From the IMG/VR virus record IMGVR_UViG_3300021197_001635, positions 32,001 to 96,000 of that record: 64,000 nucleotides of DNA; one strand, given 5' to 3'. Origin of the DNA: a virus. A model generated the notes under the pieces. It saw only the letters and a program-made list of their open reading frames with translations. It was not told where the DNA came from and did not search any database. The position numbers and the translations under genes were made by a program. Shown piece by piece: positions 3,742 to 58,690 of this stretch (position 1 is its first letter; each line of letters opens with the position of its first letter).

Positions 3742-3746
3742 TTTAT

Positions 3747-3819
3747 GGGACGGAAGCGGATGGCATCAGCAGCATCGCTTATAACGATGTTTTCGTGAGT
3801 TCGAGTCTCACTCGTCCTA
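3747..3819 (+). tRNA. tRNA-Ile(UAU)
   Basis: Acceptor GGGACGG/TCGTCCT, anticodon arm CATCG-CTTATAA-CGATG, T arm GTGAG-TTCGAGT-CTCAC; A at position 8; no encoded CCA. Confidence 0.85.
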
Positions 3820-3845
3820 TTGAGTGAAAGTCTAGGAGATTTATT

Positions 3846-5306
3846 ATGAGCAACAGTGTGACACCTTTTTATACCTCACCATTCATGACTAGGTATGCCT
3901 CTAAAGAAATGTCTTATATATGGTCTGACCATTATAAGATTTCGACTTGGAGAAAGTTATGGTGTTGTCTTGCACAAAGTCAGAGGGATGTGGGAATTGA
4001 TATTCCCCAGAAGATCATAGACAAGTTAGTAGACAATATCGACAATATTGACCACGACTCTATATCTAATCACGAAAAAACAACCAAACATGATGTGGTT
4101 GCCAACTTGTTCGCTTTCAGCGACTTGGTGGAAGGGTCTAAGCCTTATATCCATATGGGTGCTACAAGTCAATTCGTGGTAGATAACCAAGAATATTGTG
4201 CTTTAAGAGATTCTATGATAAGGATACTGGGCAAAACCGCCAAGGTGATATCGTCTATAGGCAGTTTTGCTTCTTCTTGGAAGGGAGTGCCAGTAGTCGG
4301 TATGACTCATCTGCAGACTGCCCAACCCACCACGGTTGGTAAAAGAGCATGTATGTGGGCGCAGGATTTTGTAATCGCCATTGAGGATATGGGCATTAAG
4401 ACTGATAACCTCAAGATGAGGGGAATCAAAGGAACGACTGGCACACTGTACTCCTTCTTGGAGATGTTTGAAGGTGATGAGTCTAGATTGTCTGATCTTG
4501 AATATGCTATATGTGATAGGATGGAATGTAAAAGGGAGAATTTGATAAAGATATGTGGTCAAACCCTACCTAGAATTCTAGATGCATCCCTTGTATCCTC
4601 TTTAGGACTAGCCGCCTCTGCGGCATATAAAATGTGTGGTGATATTAGGTTGCTTTGCTCTAGGGGTGAGATGATTATCACCAAGGACACCAACCAGATA
4701 GGATCGTCTGCCATGCCTTATAAAAACAACCCAATAGCGGCAGAGAAGGTTTGTTCTCTTTCTAGACACATTATATCTATGATTCAAGAGCCTTATTATA
4801 CTGCTGCCAACCAATGGTTGGAGAGGAGTCTAGATGATTCTGCTGGAAAAAGAATTTATATCCCAGAGATGTTCTTGTGTTTGGACGAGGTATTGGATAC
4901 ATGTATAAACCTATTTGAGGGTATGATACCCAATCTAGATGTATGTAATAATAACTACAATGATAGCAAGCCATTATTCATATCTGAAGATTTAATACTA
5001 GAGGCTATCAAGAAGAATGATTCAGACAGAGATAGCATGTATACTTACATTAGCGAGTGTTATGTTAATTCCAATACTAATGGGAATATTGACGTTGATA
5101 GACTTGTCAACTTGATCTCTGGTGAGATCTCTTCTAAATCAACGGTTAACAGAGAAGCATCAATGTTTGATGGTATTGATGTGAGAGAATTCTACGAGAG
5201 CAGGATGGATAAAGACTACACTGGTATGTCGGAGTCCCAGACTGAAGACTATACTGATAATGTGATATCCCAAATAAGAGACCATTACTTGGTCGAAGGG
5301 GCATAA
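3846..5306 (+). CDS. purB: Adenylosuccinate lyase
   Basis: RYASKEM, HDVVA, HMGATS, THLQTAQPTTVGKR and fumarase-family signature GSSAMPYKNNP. Confidence 0.93.
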   Translation: MSNSVTPFYTSPFMTRYASKEMSYIWSDHYKISTWRKLWCCLAQSQRDVGIDIPQKIIDKLVDNIDNIDHDSISNHEKTTKHDVVANLFAFSDLVEGSKPYIHMGATSQFVVDNQEYCALRDSMIRILGKTAKVISSIGSFASSWKGVPVVGMTHLQTAQPTTVGKRACMWAQDFVIAIEDMGIKTDNLKMRGIKGTTGTLYSFLEMFEGDESRLSDLEYAICDRMECKRENLIKICGQTLPRILDASLVSSLGLAASAAYKMCGDIRLLCSRGEMIITKDTNQIGSSAMPYKNNPIAAEKVCSLSRHIISMIQEPYYTAANQWLERSLDDSAGKRIYIPEMFLCLDEVLDTCINLFEGMIPNLDVCNNNYNDSKPLFISEDLILEAIKKNDSDRDSMYTYISECYVNSNTNGNIDVDRLVNLISGEISSKSTVNREASMFDGIDVREFYESRMDKDYTGMSESQTEDYTDNVISQIRDHYLVEGA

Positions 5307-31784: not shown

Positions 31785-32914
31785 TGACAGATTTAAGAGG
31801 TGCTAACTGTGCAGTTTACTATGTTAATGGAGCTGCTGGAAATAACTCCAGTGCAGGTACTGCTACAGGCACAGCATGGGCAACCATACAATACGCACTT
31901 GATAAAATAGCAGACGGAACTGTCAACGACGGTGACGAAGTCAGAATAATGGCGACTGGCAACTATACTATATCGTCTACTTTGAACCCAGCATTTAACA
32001 ATAAAGAGATAACTATCACTGGTGCTGATGCCAGCGGCAATGTAGATGGGACTAAAGCAGTCCTCATCGGGGCTGTGGGTGGTTCTTCTGCCATGCTGGA
32101 ATTTGAGGCTACTGAAGGAGAAAGACTAGTTATTGCACACCTCCATTTCGATGCGAACGATAACTCGCAAAACTGCATCTTAAGTGCTACAGACAACCAC
32201 TATATCCATTTCATAAATTGCAGATTCTCTCAGGCGACTGGTGAAGGAGTGGTGTGGGCAGGTAACAACTATTGGGATTTCTTATATTGCAGATTCGATA
32301 ACTGTGCATCGAGCGGACTCAAGATGGATGGTCTAGCCTTTGGTGTTGGATACAGGTGTTTGTTCGATAACAACGGTGGAGATGGATGCGACTCTCATAC
32401 TCTAAACGGTTTCAGACATAAATGGATTGAGTGTGTGTTTTACAACAATGCAGCCGATGGAATGGACTGGGTAGGTGCAGGTGGATTTGTAGCAAACTGC
32501 GTTTTTGATAGTAACGGAGAGCATGGCATCACTGACAGGTCTTCCAGTATACAATCTTTAAGACTCAATAATATCTACACCAATAACAGCAGTGCAGGTG
32601 TGAATGCTAGGGGAAGTACGGACTCGGTAGCATTTAACGAGGTATTCCATGGTAATGATAATGATGTAGAAGATACTGGTGGTGGAGCACAGGCAATATC
32701 AGAGCTTGCCCACATGATCAACTACATTCATGGAACGGCTGATAATACCAATCCCATGTACGCAGACGCGGCTAATTTTGACTTCACGCCTACAAACACC
32801 CATTTTGCGGGGTTCAACAAAGGCATAGCCACGCCATTCCAGTGGTTCGGATCGACTGCTAGCGATATGGGACTGGGCAAGTTCAAATCTTCAGAAAGCA
32901 TATCAACTTTCTGA
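31784..32914 (+). CDS. Right-handed beta-helix (pectate lyase-like) virion protein
   Basis: YYVNG..G.N...GT...AWATIQ.A cap; repeated CRF/CLFDNN/CVFYNN/CVFDSN rungs. Confidence 0.7.
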   Translation: MTDLRGANCAVYYVNGAAGNNSSAGTATGTAWATIQYALDKIADGTVNDGDEVRIMATGNYTISSTLNPAFNNKEITITGADASGNVDGTKAVLIGAVGGSSAMLEFEATEGERLVIAHLHFDANDNSQNCILSATDNHYIHFINCRFSQATGEGVVWAGNNYWDFLYCRFDNCASSGLKMDGLAFGVGYRCLFDNNGGDGCDSHTLNGFRHKWIECVFYNNAADGMDWVGAGGFVANCVFDSNGEHGITDRSSSIQSLRLNNIYTNNSSAGVNARGSTDSVAFNEVFHGNDNDVEDTGGGAQAISELAHMINYIHGTADNTNPMYADAANFDFTPTNTHFAGFNKGIATPFQWFGSTASDMGLGKFKSSESISTF

Positions 32915-45348: not shown

Positions 45349-46518
45349 ATGAATATTTCAAAGAAAAAGTGGATGATGTACGGTGGTATTGCCGCTGCTA
45401 TTCTAATCGCTTCGGTCGCGGTTGCTGATGGACCTTCATATGAAGACCTTCAGGCCCGTCTAGACGCAGCAGAGGCAAAGATCGCACAGATTGATTCCGA
45501 CCGTGCTCCAAGCTGGTTGGAAAGCAGACGTAGTGAAGAAGTTCAATCGCTAGTGCAAGATGTCCTTGCCGATGCAGAAGCACGAACGATGATGCAGGGA
45601 GACAATTCCCCAGTCACCGTTAATCTTCATGGATTTGCCATCACCCGTTGGGATTACAACAATGGTGGTGGTGTGGCAAGAAATAATGAATTCAGCATTC
45701 CATATGCTCGACTTGAAGTCTCAGGAGAGATCCTAGGCAAGGTTGGGTACTATGTCAGTGGTGAATTCAGTGACTACACGAATGGCAGCATGGATCTTGT
45801 CGACGCCTACCTCACAATGGATGTGGGTCTGGGAGTGGACATGATGGCTGGTCAGTTCGTGACTGCATTCTACCGAGGTTTCACTGATTCACCATTGGAT
45901 CAGATCGCGGGAGAGTACAGTATTCTTGCTACCACTTTTGGTCAAGGACGATCGCAGGGCCTTCAATTCACCAAAGATTTTGGTTGGTTGGATCTCTCTG
46001 CCTCTTATAACGACGGTTTCGACACCAGCAATTCATTCATGATGGACAATGACTATGGTGTCAGTGTTCGTGGTGATGTGGATTTTGGTGCTGGATTCCG
46101 TGCAGGTGCAGCCTATGCTTATCAGTCAGAACTTGAAGACTACGGTACTTACACCGTGGACTTCGGATATTCTACCGATAAGCTAGATGCACAGGTCTCA
46201 TGGGTTTCTGCCGACTATGCTGTCGGTGGATACAGTGACAACTATGGCTTCAACGCTAGTGTTGCTTATCGTTGTGCTGCCGACTTTACTGGTTTTGTTA
46301 ATTATCAATGGGGCAAGCTAGGAGTTGCTTCAGAAGATCTTAACGTGCTAGAAATCGGTGCTAACTACGATATCAACGAATACGTTCGTTGGACCACCAC
46401 CTTGGGTTATGCATTTGATGCTGTAGCCCCAGAGTGGAATACCGCTCGTTCTGGATGGAACAGCGGTTCGGAGAATGGTCAGTATCTACTGCGTACACAA
46501 CTCAGTGTAAGCTTCTGA
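45349..46518 (+). CDS. Outer-membrane beta-barrel porin (OprO/P-like, planctomycete type)
   Basis: Signal peptide, coiled coil, WL...R.EE...LV.DVLADA..R motif, alternating beta strands, C-terminal RTQLSVSF. Confidence 0.8.
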   Translation: MNISKKKWMMYGGIAAAILIASVAVADGPSYEDLQARLDAAEAKIAQIDSDRAPSWLESRRSEEVQSLVQDVLADAEARTMMQGDNSPVTVNLHGFAITRWDYNNGGGVARNNEFSIPYARLEVSGEILGKVGYYVSGEFSDYTNGSMDLVDAYLTMDVGLGVDMMAGQFVTAFYRGFTDSPLDQIAGEYSILATTFGQGRSQGLQFTKDFGWLDLSASYNDGFDTSNSFMMDNDYGVSVRGDVDFGAGFRAGAAYAYQSELEDYGTYTVDFGYSTDKLDAQVSWVSADYAVGGYSDNYGFNASVAYRCAADFTGFVNYQWGKLGVASEDLNVLEIGANYDINEYVRWTTTLGYAFDAVAPEWNTARSGWNSGSENGQYLLRTQLSVSF

Positions 46519-46552
46519 TCTGTACGGGGGTCTCACCCTCGACACTTCACAG

Positions 46553-46586
46553 GAAGACCCCTGGCTCAGGCTGGGGGTCTTCTTTT
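46553..46586 (+). terminator. Rho-independent terminator
   Basis: GAAGACCCC...GGGGTCTTC stem followed by TTTT. Confidence 0.85.
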
Positions 46587-46622
46587 ATATACCCTAACGC
46601 CTGTTAGGTATTTCTAGATATG

Positions 46623-56638: not shown

Positions 56639-56976
56639 GCATCTATAGGAAAAATGATAATATCAAAAGCCTAACAGAGGCATATAATAAAATGTATTCT
56701 TCTGATGAAGATGTTCAGGGCATTGAAGAAATTCATGATATGCCAGACCGTCTAGGTCCAGATGGAGTGCCGAATTCACCTAGCACCCCACAAACACCCA
56801 AGAGGATTAAAGAGCCTGGAGTTCCTAGACCACCCATTAGTCCTATTACCAATCCAACTCATCCGAACGCACCCCCACCACCAGTGATTAAACCACAACT
56901 CCCGTTGGATCGACTAATCCCAGACCTGCTGGACCTTTGGGACAAGATGACCAGTCCATACCGTTTTAGGCGATAG
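56635..56976 (+). CDS. Proline-rich hypothetical protein with MSIYRKNDNIKSLTEAY leader
   Basis: Shares first 50 nt with previous gene. Confidence 0.6.
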   Translation: MSIYRKNDNIKSLTEAYNKMYSSDEDVQGIEEIHDMPDRLGPDGVPNSPSTPQTPKRIKEPGVPRPPISPITNPTHPNAPPPPVIKPQLPLDRLIPDLLDLWDKMTSPYRFRR

Positions 56977-56997
56977 GGTATTCAAACCTATTGAGAT

Positions 56998-57005
56998 TAT
57001 AAATA
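56998..57005 (+). promoter_or_regulatory. T4-type late promoter TATAAATA
   Basis: Exact motif, intergenic, upstream of a structured element. Confidence 0.7.
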
Positions 57006-57009
57006 ATGT

Positions 57010-57282
57010 GTGAAAGGAAACAATAATAATCAATGATTAGAGATACCTCTTCACAATCAAATACCATAACAAGACAGGACGGTGTGCCATGCGAAAGCGG
57101 GTACGCCGTCCTTTCTTATAAGGATTTCTCCTACGGTCCGAGCAAGATAGGCAGTGCGCCAGTCGTTACGCTATCCATGCAAGGTGAGGGTGTATCAGAC
57201 CCTCACTAAGGAACTTCGCTACCTTTGGACCGTCATTCATAGTAGGCAACCCCTTGACCTTTGTCAGGGGGTTGTCTTTTTT
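57010..57282 (+). ncRNA. Putative structured small RNA with segments antisense to 23S rRNA domain IV
   Basis: Late promoter, GAAA-capped hairpin 57076-57112, closing stem 57133-57142/57223-57233, terminator; 57152-57181 and 57208-57233 are reverse complements of conserved 23S sequence. Confidence 0.65.
57245..57282 (+). terminator. Rho-independent terminator
   Basis: GGCAACCCCTTGAC-CTTT-GTCAGGGGGTTGTC followed by T6. Confidence 0.85.
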
Positions 57283-57319
57283 ATATATAAAGGAGAACAT
57301 ACCCTAGGAGACTCCCTAT

Positions 57320-58690
57320 ATGAAGAATTTCAAACAGTTTGTCTTGACAGAGGCTAGAGGATTCTTCATGGGTCACCACATAGGTGATGATGTGGTGTTC
57401 AAATCAGGATCTTATGCTAGTGCTGGGTCTTTCACCATTGTTTCTCATGACATGGTATCGGACATTCACTCCAAGGTGGATGGTTATGTTCAAAAAGGTT
57501 ATGAGGTTGCACAACAATGGACTGGTCCAGATAAAGAGATCACTGATACTAGTAAGGTAGATAGTTATAATGATGGTAGAATCATAGTATTAGATAGCCA
57601 GAAGAAAAAAGTCATAGTGGTCATATTTGGCAAGGGTAAAAATTCTGGTGCATCACCTAGAAGATTCAACCTTAGATACTCAACAAGCACAGAATCGCTA
57701 GACCTTAAACCTCAATCATTGGGTCTGAAAGAGAAGCCCTATGGTATGGATTCTTTCGCTAATACTGTAATAAATGCGGTCCTCGACAGGAAAGATTTAG
57801 ACCCAGCAGTCAAGGGTTATCTCGAACTTCTAGTTGAGTATTATTGGAATAATTATAGCAATGAAGTGGCAAACGACATCAAGAATGAGTATGGTGATGT
57901 CCTCAGTAGCATGCCCATGGGTCAGATTAAGAAGAACTTCGGTGAAATAATAGGTCCCTTAGCAATTCTTGCAAGCAAATCCGTACTGTTCAAATCAATG
58001 AAATTCAATAAAAGAGACAAAATACTCTTGCCTTTAAGGGGTAACGAGGAACTGGTAGACTTCTATCTTGTGAAAGACGGGAGACAAATACCTTTCTCTG
58101 CCAAGTCTGGAAGATCTACTACCAACTTGGTAAAGCCAGGCAATATAGTGTCACTGATTGATGCTAACCCCTCCTTCAAGAGGAAATACGGTAGGTCTCT
58201 GGAAGTCAAGGTTATGAAAGACCTTGCCAGCAACGTAGCAACTGATGGACCCATGGTAGCAGCATATAACCTTAACAAATCTATCAAGGAATTCAAGAAG
58301 ATCTCCAAGGAGATGCTAGACCATTGGACTTCTACCTCCAGTAGGAAGGGCAGAGATTGGAAGTATATCCCCGAGTTATATGATGACTATGCTTCGGCTA
58401 TCGGATTGAACACCAGCGGAAGAAAGAAACCAACGTTTGGTGAAATACTCTATTACACCGAAACAACCCTCGCTAGAGCAAGCAAGGGTGGGATATTAGA
58501 CTACTCAGAGATGTTCAATGAGGTGGTAGGTGGTGCAGTCAACTACATCAACCTAGTCAAGATGGATAAAAACGGTCTACCAGTGTGGGAGACCTCAGAA
58601 GGTGGAAGATCAACTGCCCATTTGAGAACTAAAAATGGAACTACTAGGATCGCAACAGACAAAGTTGGTTTACAAGTACATACAGGGTAA
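57320..58690 (+). CDS. Putative PD-(D/E)XK nuclease-like protein with capsid-targeting-like N-terminus
   Basis: MKNFKQFVLTE leader; FGEI.GP, P..GNEELVDF...FSAKSG. Confidence 0.5.
   Translation: MKNFKQFVLTEARGFFMGHHIGDDVVFKSGSYASAGSFTIVSHDMVSDIHSKVDGYVQKGYEVAQQWTGPDKEITDTSKVDSYNDGRIIVLDSQKKKVIVVIFGKGKNSGASPRRFNLRYSTSTESLDLKPQSLGLKEKPYGMDSFANTVINAVLDRKDLDPAVKGYLELLVEYYWNNYSNEVANDIKNEYGDVLSSMPMGQIKKNFGEIIGPLAILASKSVLFKSMKFNKRDKILLPLRGNEELVDFYLVKDGRQIPFSAKSGRSTTNLVKPGNIVSLIDANPSFKRKYGRSLEVKVMKDLASNVATDGPMVAAYNLNKSIKEFKKISKEMLDHWTSTSSRKGRDWKYIPELYDDYASAIGLNTSGRKKPTFGEILYYTETTLARASKGGILDYSEMFNEVVGGAVNYINLVKMDKNGLPVWETSEGGRSTAHLRTKNGTTRIATDKVGLQVHTG

Follow-up and report, generated by a model that had tools for sequence, protein, structure and literature searches.

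What a phage might gain from a small structured RNA whose exposed bases are complementary to bacterial 23S ribosomal RNA (rRNA) is the question raised by one intergenic locus of an uncultured virus. The window analyzed here, that is, the whole stretch of 64,000 nucleotides (nt) at positions 32,001 to 96,000 of the IMG/VR record IMGVR_UViG_3300021197_001635, is part of a 136-kb viral record that includes T4-like baseplate wedge proteins (phrog_219, E 2.6e-164), and the element in question occupies a 340-nt gap between two open reading frames (ORFs) of the + strand. The original prediction, which was made from the letters of the sequence, described a small RNA that is antisense to the 23S rRNA on both sides of helix 71, and this complementarity is indeed present. 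The match to the 23S rRNA is beyond chance, and the element is almost certainly an independent gene for a non-coding RNA in a T4-like phage, the same near certainty applying to the family of relatives to which it belongs.

When read on the minus strand, the segments at 57208-57233 and 57152-57181 are the strings quoted originally, and they match the 23S gene of Escherichia coli (E. coli; locus L244) without gaps at 24 of 26 and 20 of 30 positions, respectively, as had been predicted. Both segments also fall in the two regions of the 23S rRNA that had been named, while the annotated positions, 1914-1939 and 1958-1987, are 5 below the numbers given at the time; the labels 1918, 1938, and 1967 used below follow what we take to be the standard numbering, with this 5-nt offset added. 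The complementarity consists of two blocks of about 29 and 34 nt, which cover the loop and 3' strand of helix 69 together with the helix 70 strand, and the strand that follows helix 71, to which the P2 region of the element (57149-57180) is antisense. The segments start 44 nt apart in the rRNA and 52 nt apart in the window, so that the replacement is 8 nt longer than the helix 71 region, and the unrelated hairpin that had been described in place of helix 71 is found there (P3; Table 1) and covaries among the relatives.

A blastn search of the whole window against five loci bearing 23S genes recovered 57149-57236 as the only match, with an E value of 7.6e-12 for two Planctomycetota 23S genes and of 1e-3 for E. 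coli in this small database, and the match to all E. coli genomes is weak (E 1-5). The Rfam model of the bacterial large-subunit (LSU) rRNA (RF02541) aligns with the minus strand over model positions 1873-2021, at 8.9 bits (E 1.4; gathering threshold 50). A bacterial LSU rRNA gene, or a fragment of one, was rejected as an identification of the element, given this score, the replacement of helix 71, the loss of the helices of the rRNA, and the lack of any rRNA gene in the 136-kb record.

In the 23S genes of Planctomycetota (L128 and L155), the matches rise to 25 of 26 (57208-57233) and 28 of 30 (57152-57181), and the mismatches to E. coli at GAAGTTCC and GACTGGCGCACTG, and also at CATG and ACTATG, become matches in the 23S rRNA of Planctomycetota/Phycisphaerae, which the original prediction had proposed as a check. 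Over the 64 positions mapped in L128, the window RNA could form 60 Watson-Crick pairs and two G-U pairs, with two mismatches. The predicted net hybridization energy with a 133-nt fragment of the 23S rRNA is -74.6 kcal/mol for L128 and -39.6 for E. coli, against -10.1 +/- 3.5 for 100 shuffled elements, and the predicted dimer has two duplexes flanking helix 71, with the spacer hairpin P3 left free.

A scan of one genome per species with the 18-mer carrying G (GAAGTTCC) recovered at least 120 loci, which are 23S genes, and 71 of the 80 titles among the matches listed name Planctomycetota lineages, on our assignment of the genera to this phylum. The C found in the C/U column of the junction strand J3/1 pairs with the G of many Planctomycetota 23S genes. 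This C/U base was considered as a tracker of the host and set aside, the position being polymorphic in the Planctomycetota themselves: of 301 genomes, 86 have the G form and 67 the A form. The loop part of helix 69 is ACTATG in the Planctomycetota 23S rRNA, as the element requires, and ACTATA in the few rRNAs of other phyla in the set, and the CATAG of the single-stranded tail is complementary to this ACTATG. Some Planctomycetota 23S genes (L136, L169, L173, L186, L207, and L225) are interrupted, four of them in the loop of helix 69 and two in the loop of helix 71, most likely by introns, and it is in these two loops that the phage element, too, departs from the rRNA, by extra bases or a replacement.

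The 17-mer AGGAAYTTCGCTACCTT, which spans the single-stranded core and then the 3' strand of the closing stem (window 57209-57225) and is invariant in 31 relatives except at Y, was found in 79 viral contigs, mostly in small units of the same build. Once two true rRNA gene fragments (L025 and L061) and a number of coding-like hits (L004, L011, L023, L036, L040, L054, L069, and L079) had been excluded, most of the remaining contigs presented, on one strand, a promoter-like motif, the closing stem, the conserved core, and a terminator with a T-run. Upstream lies a segment of the ACGCYRTYCRTGC type (window 57168-57180), antisense to the strand of the 23S rRNA that follows helix 71. A scan of metagenomes with a more specific 18-mer recovered 38 loci, of which 28 are units like that of the window, eight are unrelated coding-like sequences, and two are rRNA. 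The number of distinct family-like sequences counted was 68, and these searches recovered them only from the contigs of uncultured phages and metagenomes.

A covariance model, R1, was built from 29 distinct close relatives; it scores the window element at 156.4 bits (E 1.9e-41) and has 68 matches at E <= 0.01 in 80 sources, with one true copy in the 136-kb record. A candidate second copy in the window (46513-46591, + strand; R1 23.3 bits) was rejected, as it has only a G+C-rich hairpin, a T-run, and TATATA, and is a terminator of the same style. In the shorter types of the family, which score 24-58 bits with R1, P3 is absent altogether. When R1 was applied to 151 Planctomycetota genomes, 73 had matches of 28.8-57.4 bits, none of which reaches the 74 bits or more of the close relatives; the family was not found in these genomes, in that the six best matches, once inspected, were the antisense of the genome's own 23S gene, while the scores of the 67 others are indistinguishable from those of the short family types.

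No match was found among GenBank phages, using blastn in distant mode, for the window element or for the related L010 and L005. In Rfam 15, no family was above threshold at 56950-57330, or at the element in 14 related loci, and the matches to small nucleolar RNAs (snoRNAs) at the element are below threshold (snoU30, 14.8 bits, and snR31, 11.5 bits; threshold 45 in both cases). The original view that no phage RNA complementary to the 23S rRNA has been described is shared by Rfam and by that part of the literature which the full-text search covered, where no such description was found.

Two further sets of sequences were encountered in the course of these searches. The 16-mer GGCAGTGCGCCAGTCG occurs in 47 viral loci, of which only L001-L003 are related to the element, and was set aside, the rest having no blastn match to it. 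A 21-nt identity to the antisense of the 23S rRNA (ACAAGGAATTTCGCTACCTTA) is found in a different setting in L018, L042, L078, L053, L059, L024, L028/L047, and L032, with weak R1 matches (20.6-28.5 bits) on three of these contigs (L078, L032, and L053), and these may represent further classes of anti-23S elements. Some members of the family lie directly beside phage genes for transfer RNA (tRNA) and transfer-messenger RNA (tmRNA), or at a distance of a few kb, with a standard tmRNA directly upstream in L008 (1696-2289) and a permuted tmRNA in L010, L005, and L044.

The pattern of conservation in the family follows the bases that are complementary to the rRNA. In J3/1, 18 contiguous columns of the alignment (107-124) are invariant in the 31 relatives, except for one C/U and one A/U column, and the C/U column lies opposite the G/A-polymorphic position of the rRNA, where both C and U can pair with G. 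The 29 unpaired columns that lie opposite well-conserved rRNA positions contain 833 Watson-Crick cells, 21 G-U cells, and 35 mismatch cells, and the transitions in these columns keep the pairing in 21 cells and break it in one, although these cells do not represent independent events. All five members of the window clade share an identical run of 46 nt, which begins at the end of P3 (57207), crosses the tail, and extends into the first bases of the terminator, whereas the flanks diverge. CATAG occurs in all but one of the 41 family sequences with the tail part, and, facing position 1918, 40 of the 41 sequences with the part opposite the helix 69 loop have C, which fits the planctomycete G. The homologues retain the complementarity, and it is the overlapping 58-amino-acid (aa) ORF that is not conserved in them.

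The fold is supported by covariation, which was counted in the 31 distinct sequences aligned to R1. The pairing is formed in 92.1% of the paired cells, compared with 38-42% after the partners have been shifted by 1-3 columns, and double-sided changes occur at 23 of 40 pairs, the observed values being reached by none of 500 shuffles. Both sides change at seven of the nine pairs of P3 (94% of cells paired) and at 10 of the 14 modelled pairs of the terminator (99%), while one stem pair of P2 covaries from A-U to G-C in seven of the 31 sequences. In P1, 77% of the cells are paired in the model alignment, a low value that is attributed here to a shift of register between clades, and the relatives form this helix with other sequences (GGCCC/GGGCC, AUCGA/UCGAU, and GUCGA/UCGAC). 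The relatives also have a hairpin at the place of hairpin 1, despite a differing sequence, and in others (L251 and L265, for example), its U-tract is followed by P1 after no more than about 8-30 nt; this short gap, together with the promoter-like motif upstream of the hairpin, indicates that hairpin 1 belongs to the same unit. The structured + strand unit of the original prediction is recovered as a three-way junction with covariation support, followed by a terminator (Table 1). In the predicted fold, the P2 loop has a mean unpaired probability of 0.51, and J3/1 of 0.62 overall, which rises to about 0.8-0.9 in its central bases.

Table 1. Coordinates in the window of the features of the RNA element and of the ORF that overlaps it.
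Feature	Position	Strand	Remarks
Promoter motif TATAAATA	56998-57005	+	T4-type late-promoter motif; invariant at the same place in 5/5 members of the window clade
A+U-rich leader	57012-57070 (start approximate)	+	Mean unpaired probability 0.64; moderate conservation in the clade
58-aa ORF	57033-57209	+	Overlaps the RNA; judged not to be a gene
Hairpin 1	57071-57119 (core 57077-57111)	+	GAAA loop, followed by a U-rich tract
P1, 5' strand	57133-57142	+	Pairs with 57224-57233; closes the three-way junction
P2 hairpin	57143-57181	+	Stems 57142-57144/57178-57180 and 57146-57150/57171-57175; loop 57151-57170
P3 hairpin	57184-57206	+	GTGAGGGT / GTATCAG / ACCCTCAC; at the place of helix 71, with a sequence unrelated to it
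J3/1 junction strand	57207-57223	+	Single-stranded; candidate main seed; antisense to the helix 70 strand
P1, 3' strand	57224-57233	+	Also antisense to the 3' strand of helix 69; unpaired probability 0.04
Single-stranded tail	57234-57243	+	CATAGT antisense to the helix 69 loop; unpaired probability 0.79; 4 extra bases in the window copy
Intrinsic terminator	57244-57283	+	G+C-rich stem 57244-57277, 15 pairs, then the TTTTTATATA T-run

These features suggest, with a probability that we would place at about one half, a trans-acting antisense RNA directed against domain IV of the host 23S rRNA (helices 69-70 and the strand after helix 71). More tentatively, it can be proposed that an RNA dedicated to seizing the 23S rRNA of the host, by two long antisense duplexes around helix 71, is made by the phages of the Planctomycetota and perhaps by those of other bacteria, and that the bases of this RNA are kept matched to the rRNA variants of the host lineage. 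The + strand would be transcribed from the late-type promoter (56998) to the terminator (57244-57283), and the RNA would pair in trans with unfolded 23S rRNA of the host, either nascent or in late pre-50S particles. The pairing would begin at the exposed junction strand and the P2 loop, after which P1 would open, and two duplexes of about 29 and 34 base pairs would form on either side of helix 71, which P3 would leave free. These duplexes would hold the intersubunit-bridge region (helices 69-71) out of its native fold, so that either the maturation of the 50S subunit or the joining of the subunits would be blocked, or the rRNA would become a substrate for a double-strand-specific RNase. Duplexes of such a length would also be substrates of RNase III. 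In late 45S precursors, helices 67-71 are described as highly unstable or flexible (PMC3737534), and the target may therefore be reachable there.

A number of points weigh against this proposal. The strand of the putative transcript is assigned from signals in the sequence, and the match to the Planctomycetota is possibly a historical mark left by captured ribosomal DNA (rDNA), and not a sign that the present host is tracked. The targeted region is folded and partly buried in the mature ribosome, so that pairing needs unfolded rRNA, and new rRNA is perhaps scarce late in a T4-type infection. Within the free RNA, the complementary 3' strand of P1 is itself paired, columns 125 and 126, which adjoin the helix 69 strand, are mismatched in most members (U-U and C-C), and the shorter family types keep only about 13 and 18 complementary bases. 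Some of the phages that bear the family carry permuted tmRNA genes, which are typical of other phyla, where the C opposite position 1938 would be mismatched, and the 12 U cells of the C/U column may stem from few changes. The planctomycete signature may reflect the capture of rDNA as much as any present-day matching.

Such a capture is the basis of an unlikely alternative, in which the element is a structured phage RNA derived from inverted planctomycete rDNA that does not pair with the rRNA, its complementarity having been inherited but not being used. The role of the RNA would then be to bind a protein, or to pair with a messenger RNA (mRNA) of the host or phage, or with the rRNA gene itself. 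The collinearity of the element with about 90 nt of the 23S gene does look like common descent, and P2 is a new internal helix, formed by changes that cost some of the complementarity; in addition, the bases that face positions 1938, 1967, and 1918 (C, A, and C) are met again in different family types, whatever their hosts. The invariant bases are, nevertheless, those that are both unpaired and complementary to the rRNA, and their rare changes keep the pairing, by the 21 cells to one given above. The 136-kb record has no other site with fewer than four mismatches in 20-21 bases for either of the exposed segments, a result that led to the rejection of phage mRNA as the target. The closest candidate, a 16 of 20 complement to the P2 loop at window 4429-4448 (+ strand), within a 486-aa ORF (3846-5306), is at about the level of chance (an estimated 0.1 per 136 kb, both strands).

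A very improbable alternative is that the minus strand is functional, imitating helices 69-70 of the rRNA and so serving as a decoy for a toxin that cleaves rRNA or an enzyme that modifies it. The minus strand resembles the 23S rRNA in the sense orientation and folds better than its shuffles (z = -4.5), yet the fold of the + strand is the stronger of the two (z = -7.6), and neither helix 71 nor the rRNA's own pairings are kept. The G-U pairs claimed originally in hairpin 1, in the closing stem P1, and in the terminator are present, and, over the relatives, the helix cells that are not Watson-Crick comprise 113 of G-U and 30 of A-C. The excess of G-U over A-C favors the + strand as the RNA, since the G-U pairs become mismatches on the minus strand, and the promoter motif and T-run lie on this same strand; across the clade, the promoter motifs are found upstream on the + strand, and it is only on this strand that a T-run follows the terminator stem. 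A decoy for an rRNA-targeting defense would require the sense strand, which the features of the sequence do not favor.

The transcription signals that had been predicted to bracket the folded region, a TATAAATA motif at 56998 and a strong terminator, are both present on the + strand. The motif is a putative late promoter, by comparison with T4; it has nine copies in the window, all nine of them on the + strand, with 3.46 expected on both strands together. The DNA upstream of TATAAATA is unrelated among the five clade members, in which the motif is invariant, and in most other clades this place, upstream of hairpin 1, is taken by a TATACATAT-like motif. The T-run and the promoter motif share one strand in the five aligned clade members, and a promoter-like motif precedes most of the other relatives listed. 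As signals in the sequence, both the promoter motif and the terminator to be expected of an independent transcription unit are present and conserved. A word search of sequencing runs listed no RNA run with the element, the best DNA run having 0.23 of the words.

A further alternative, for which there is little probability, is that the element acts in cis, as a leader or attenuator for the downstream gene (57320-58690), or as a 3' untranslated element of the upstream gene. A 456-aa ORF does begin 38 nt after the unit, and hairpin 1, taken together with the U-tract, resembles an internal terminator, but the neighbors vary among the relatives, the downstream ORF being on the opposite strand in 11 of the 22 relatives with one listed; a promoter motif of its own and a strong terminator are constant parts of the unit, and no alternative antiterminator pairing was seen in the folds.

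The least probable of all is that the locus encodes the 58-aa peptide of the overlapping ORF, since, although an ATG ORF of at least 50 aa in the same frame and with the same stop is found in five of 29 distinct relatives (the window, L276, L271, L001, and L259), four of which share the ATG at about the same place, the other 24 relatives have no such ORF and L247 is frameshifted, each of the six base changes that separate L001 from the window in the conserved part alters the amino acid, with none silent, the arms of hairpin 1 change together and rewrite the peptide, the nearest purine-rich motif has its GGA some 14 nt ahead of the ATG, and both the conserved sequence and the pairing extend past the stop codon. 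Domain V of a group II intron, considered by eye for hairpin 1, was rejected, as the side on which the bulge lies does not suit the + strand, the loop does not suit the minus strand, and Rfam has no intron match.

No functional association came to light in the surroundings of the element. None of eight neighboring proteins has a PHROGs family, and, in a Pfam search of seven flanking proteins, five had no match, the others being HSP20 and a MapZ_EC1 match below threshold. The HSP20-family small heat-shock protein (Pfam E 3.6e-17) is encoded by the gene upstream of the RNA in one subclade (L001, 1-522; L003, L006, L245, L247, and L266). At the gathering thresholds of Rfam, the window has only three tRNAs, and the tRNA genes lie 5-7 kb upstream of the element. 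A fourth tRNA (Ile, anticodon tat), absent from this Rfam run, was found by ARAGORN at 3746-3820 (+ strand).

Phages are known to change the translation of their hosts with proteins, with tRNAs, and, in some cases, with ribosomal proteins. If the antisense reading is true, a virus would for the first time be seen to direct a natural trans-acting RNA against rRNA, a new means of controlling or destroying the production of ribosomes. The bridge region of helices 69-71, which folds late, would emerge as a new site at which the ribosome is attacked, and the element would provide a natural template for inhibiting ribosome assembly by antisense pairing. The Planctomycetota, for which, to our knowledge, very few phages are known, would gain a link to an uncultured T4-like phage and perhaps to a whole phage family, and the variable bases would become a marker of the host lineage of uncultured phages that is read from sequence.

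Among known systems, the closest in build are the trans-acting and loop-presenting antisense RNAs of bacteria, plasmids, and phages, such as CopA/CopT of R1, RNA I/RNA II of ColE1, and the small RNAs (sRNAs) that have a seed and a Rho-independent terminator. Like CopA, RNA I, and the sRNAs, the element is small and structured, has a promoter motif and an intrinsic terminator of its own, and presents its complementary bases in a loop and a single-stranded junction. It differs from them in that its apparent target is an rRNA, rather than an mRNA or a replication primer, and in that the complementarity, in its two blocks, is far longer than the usual seed. Other RNAs pair with rRNA or its precursors, as do the snoRNAs of eukaryotes and archaea and the chloroplast antisense RNA to 5S rRNA, and the element would share with these the pairing of RNA with RNA outside the mature fold of the rRNA. 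Unlike them, it is encoded by a phage, its predicted duplexes are much longer, and its matches to snoRNAs are all below threshold.

With the 23S rRNA itself (RF02541), the element has in common the approximately 90 nt over which its minus strand is collinear, and it departs from the rRNA in the replacement of helix 71, in its new internal helices, and in having its promoter and terminator on the opposite strand. A man-made counterpart is the peptide nucleic acid (PNA) against helix 69, which, according to its citation in a review, inhibited the growth of E. coli (Kulik et al. 2017, cited in PMC7038079). The element is predicted to address the same region of the 23S rRNA by base pairing, and differs from the PNA, which is short, in being a natural, folded RNA of about 270 nt that extends its cover to helix 70 and to the strand after helix 71.

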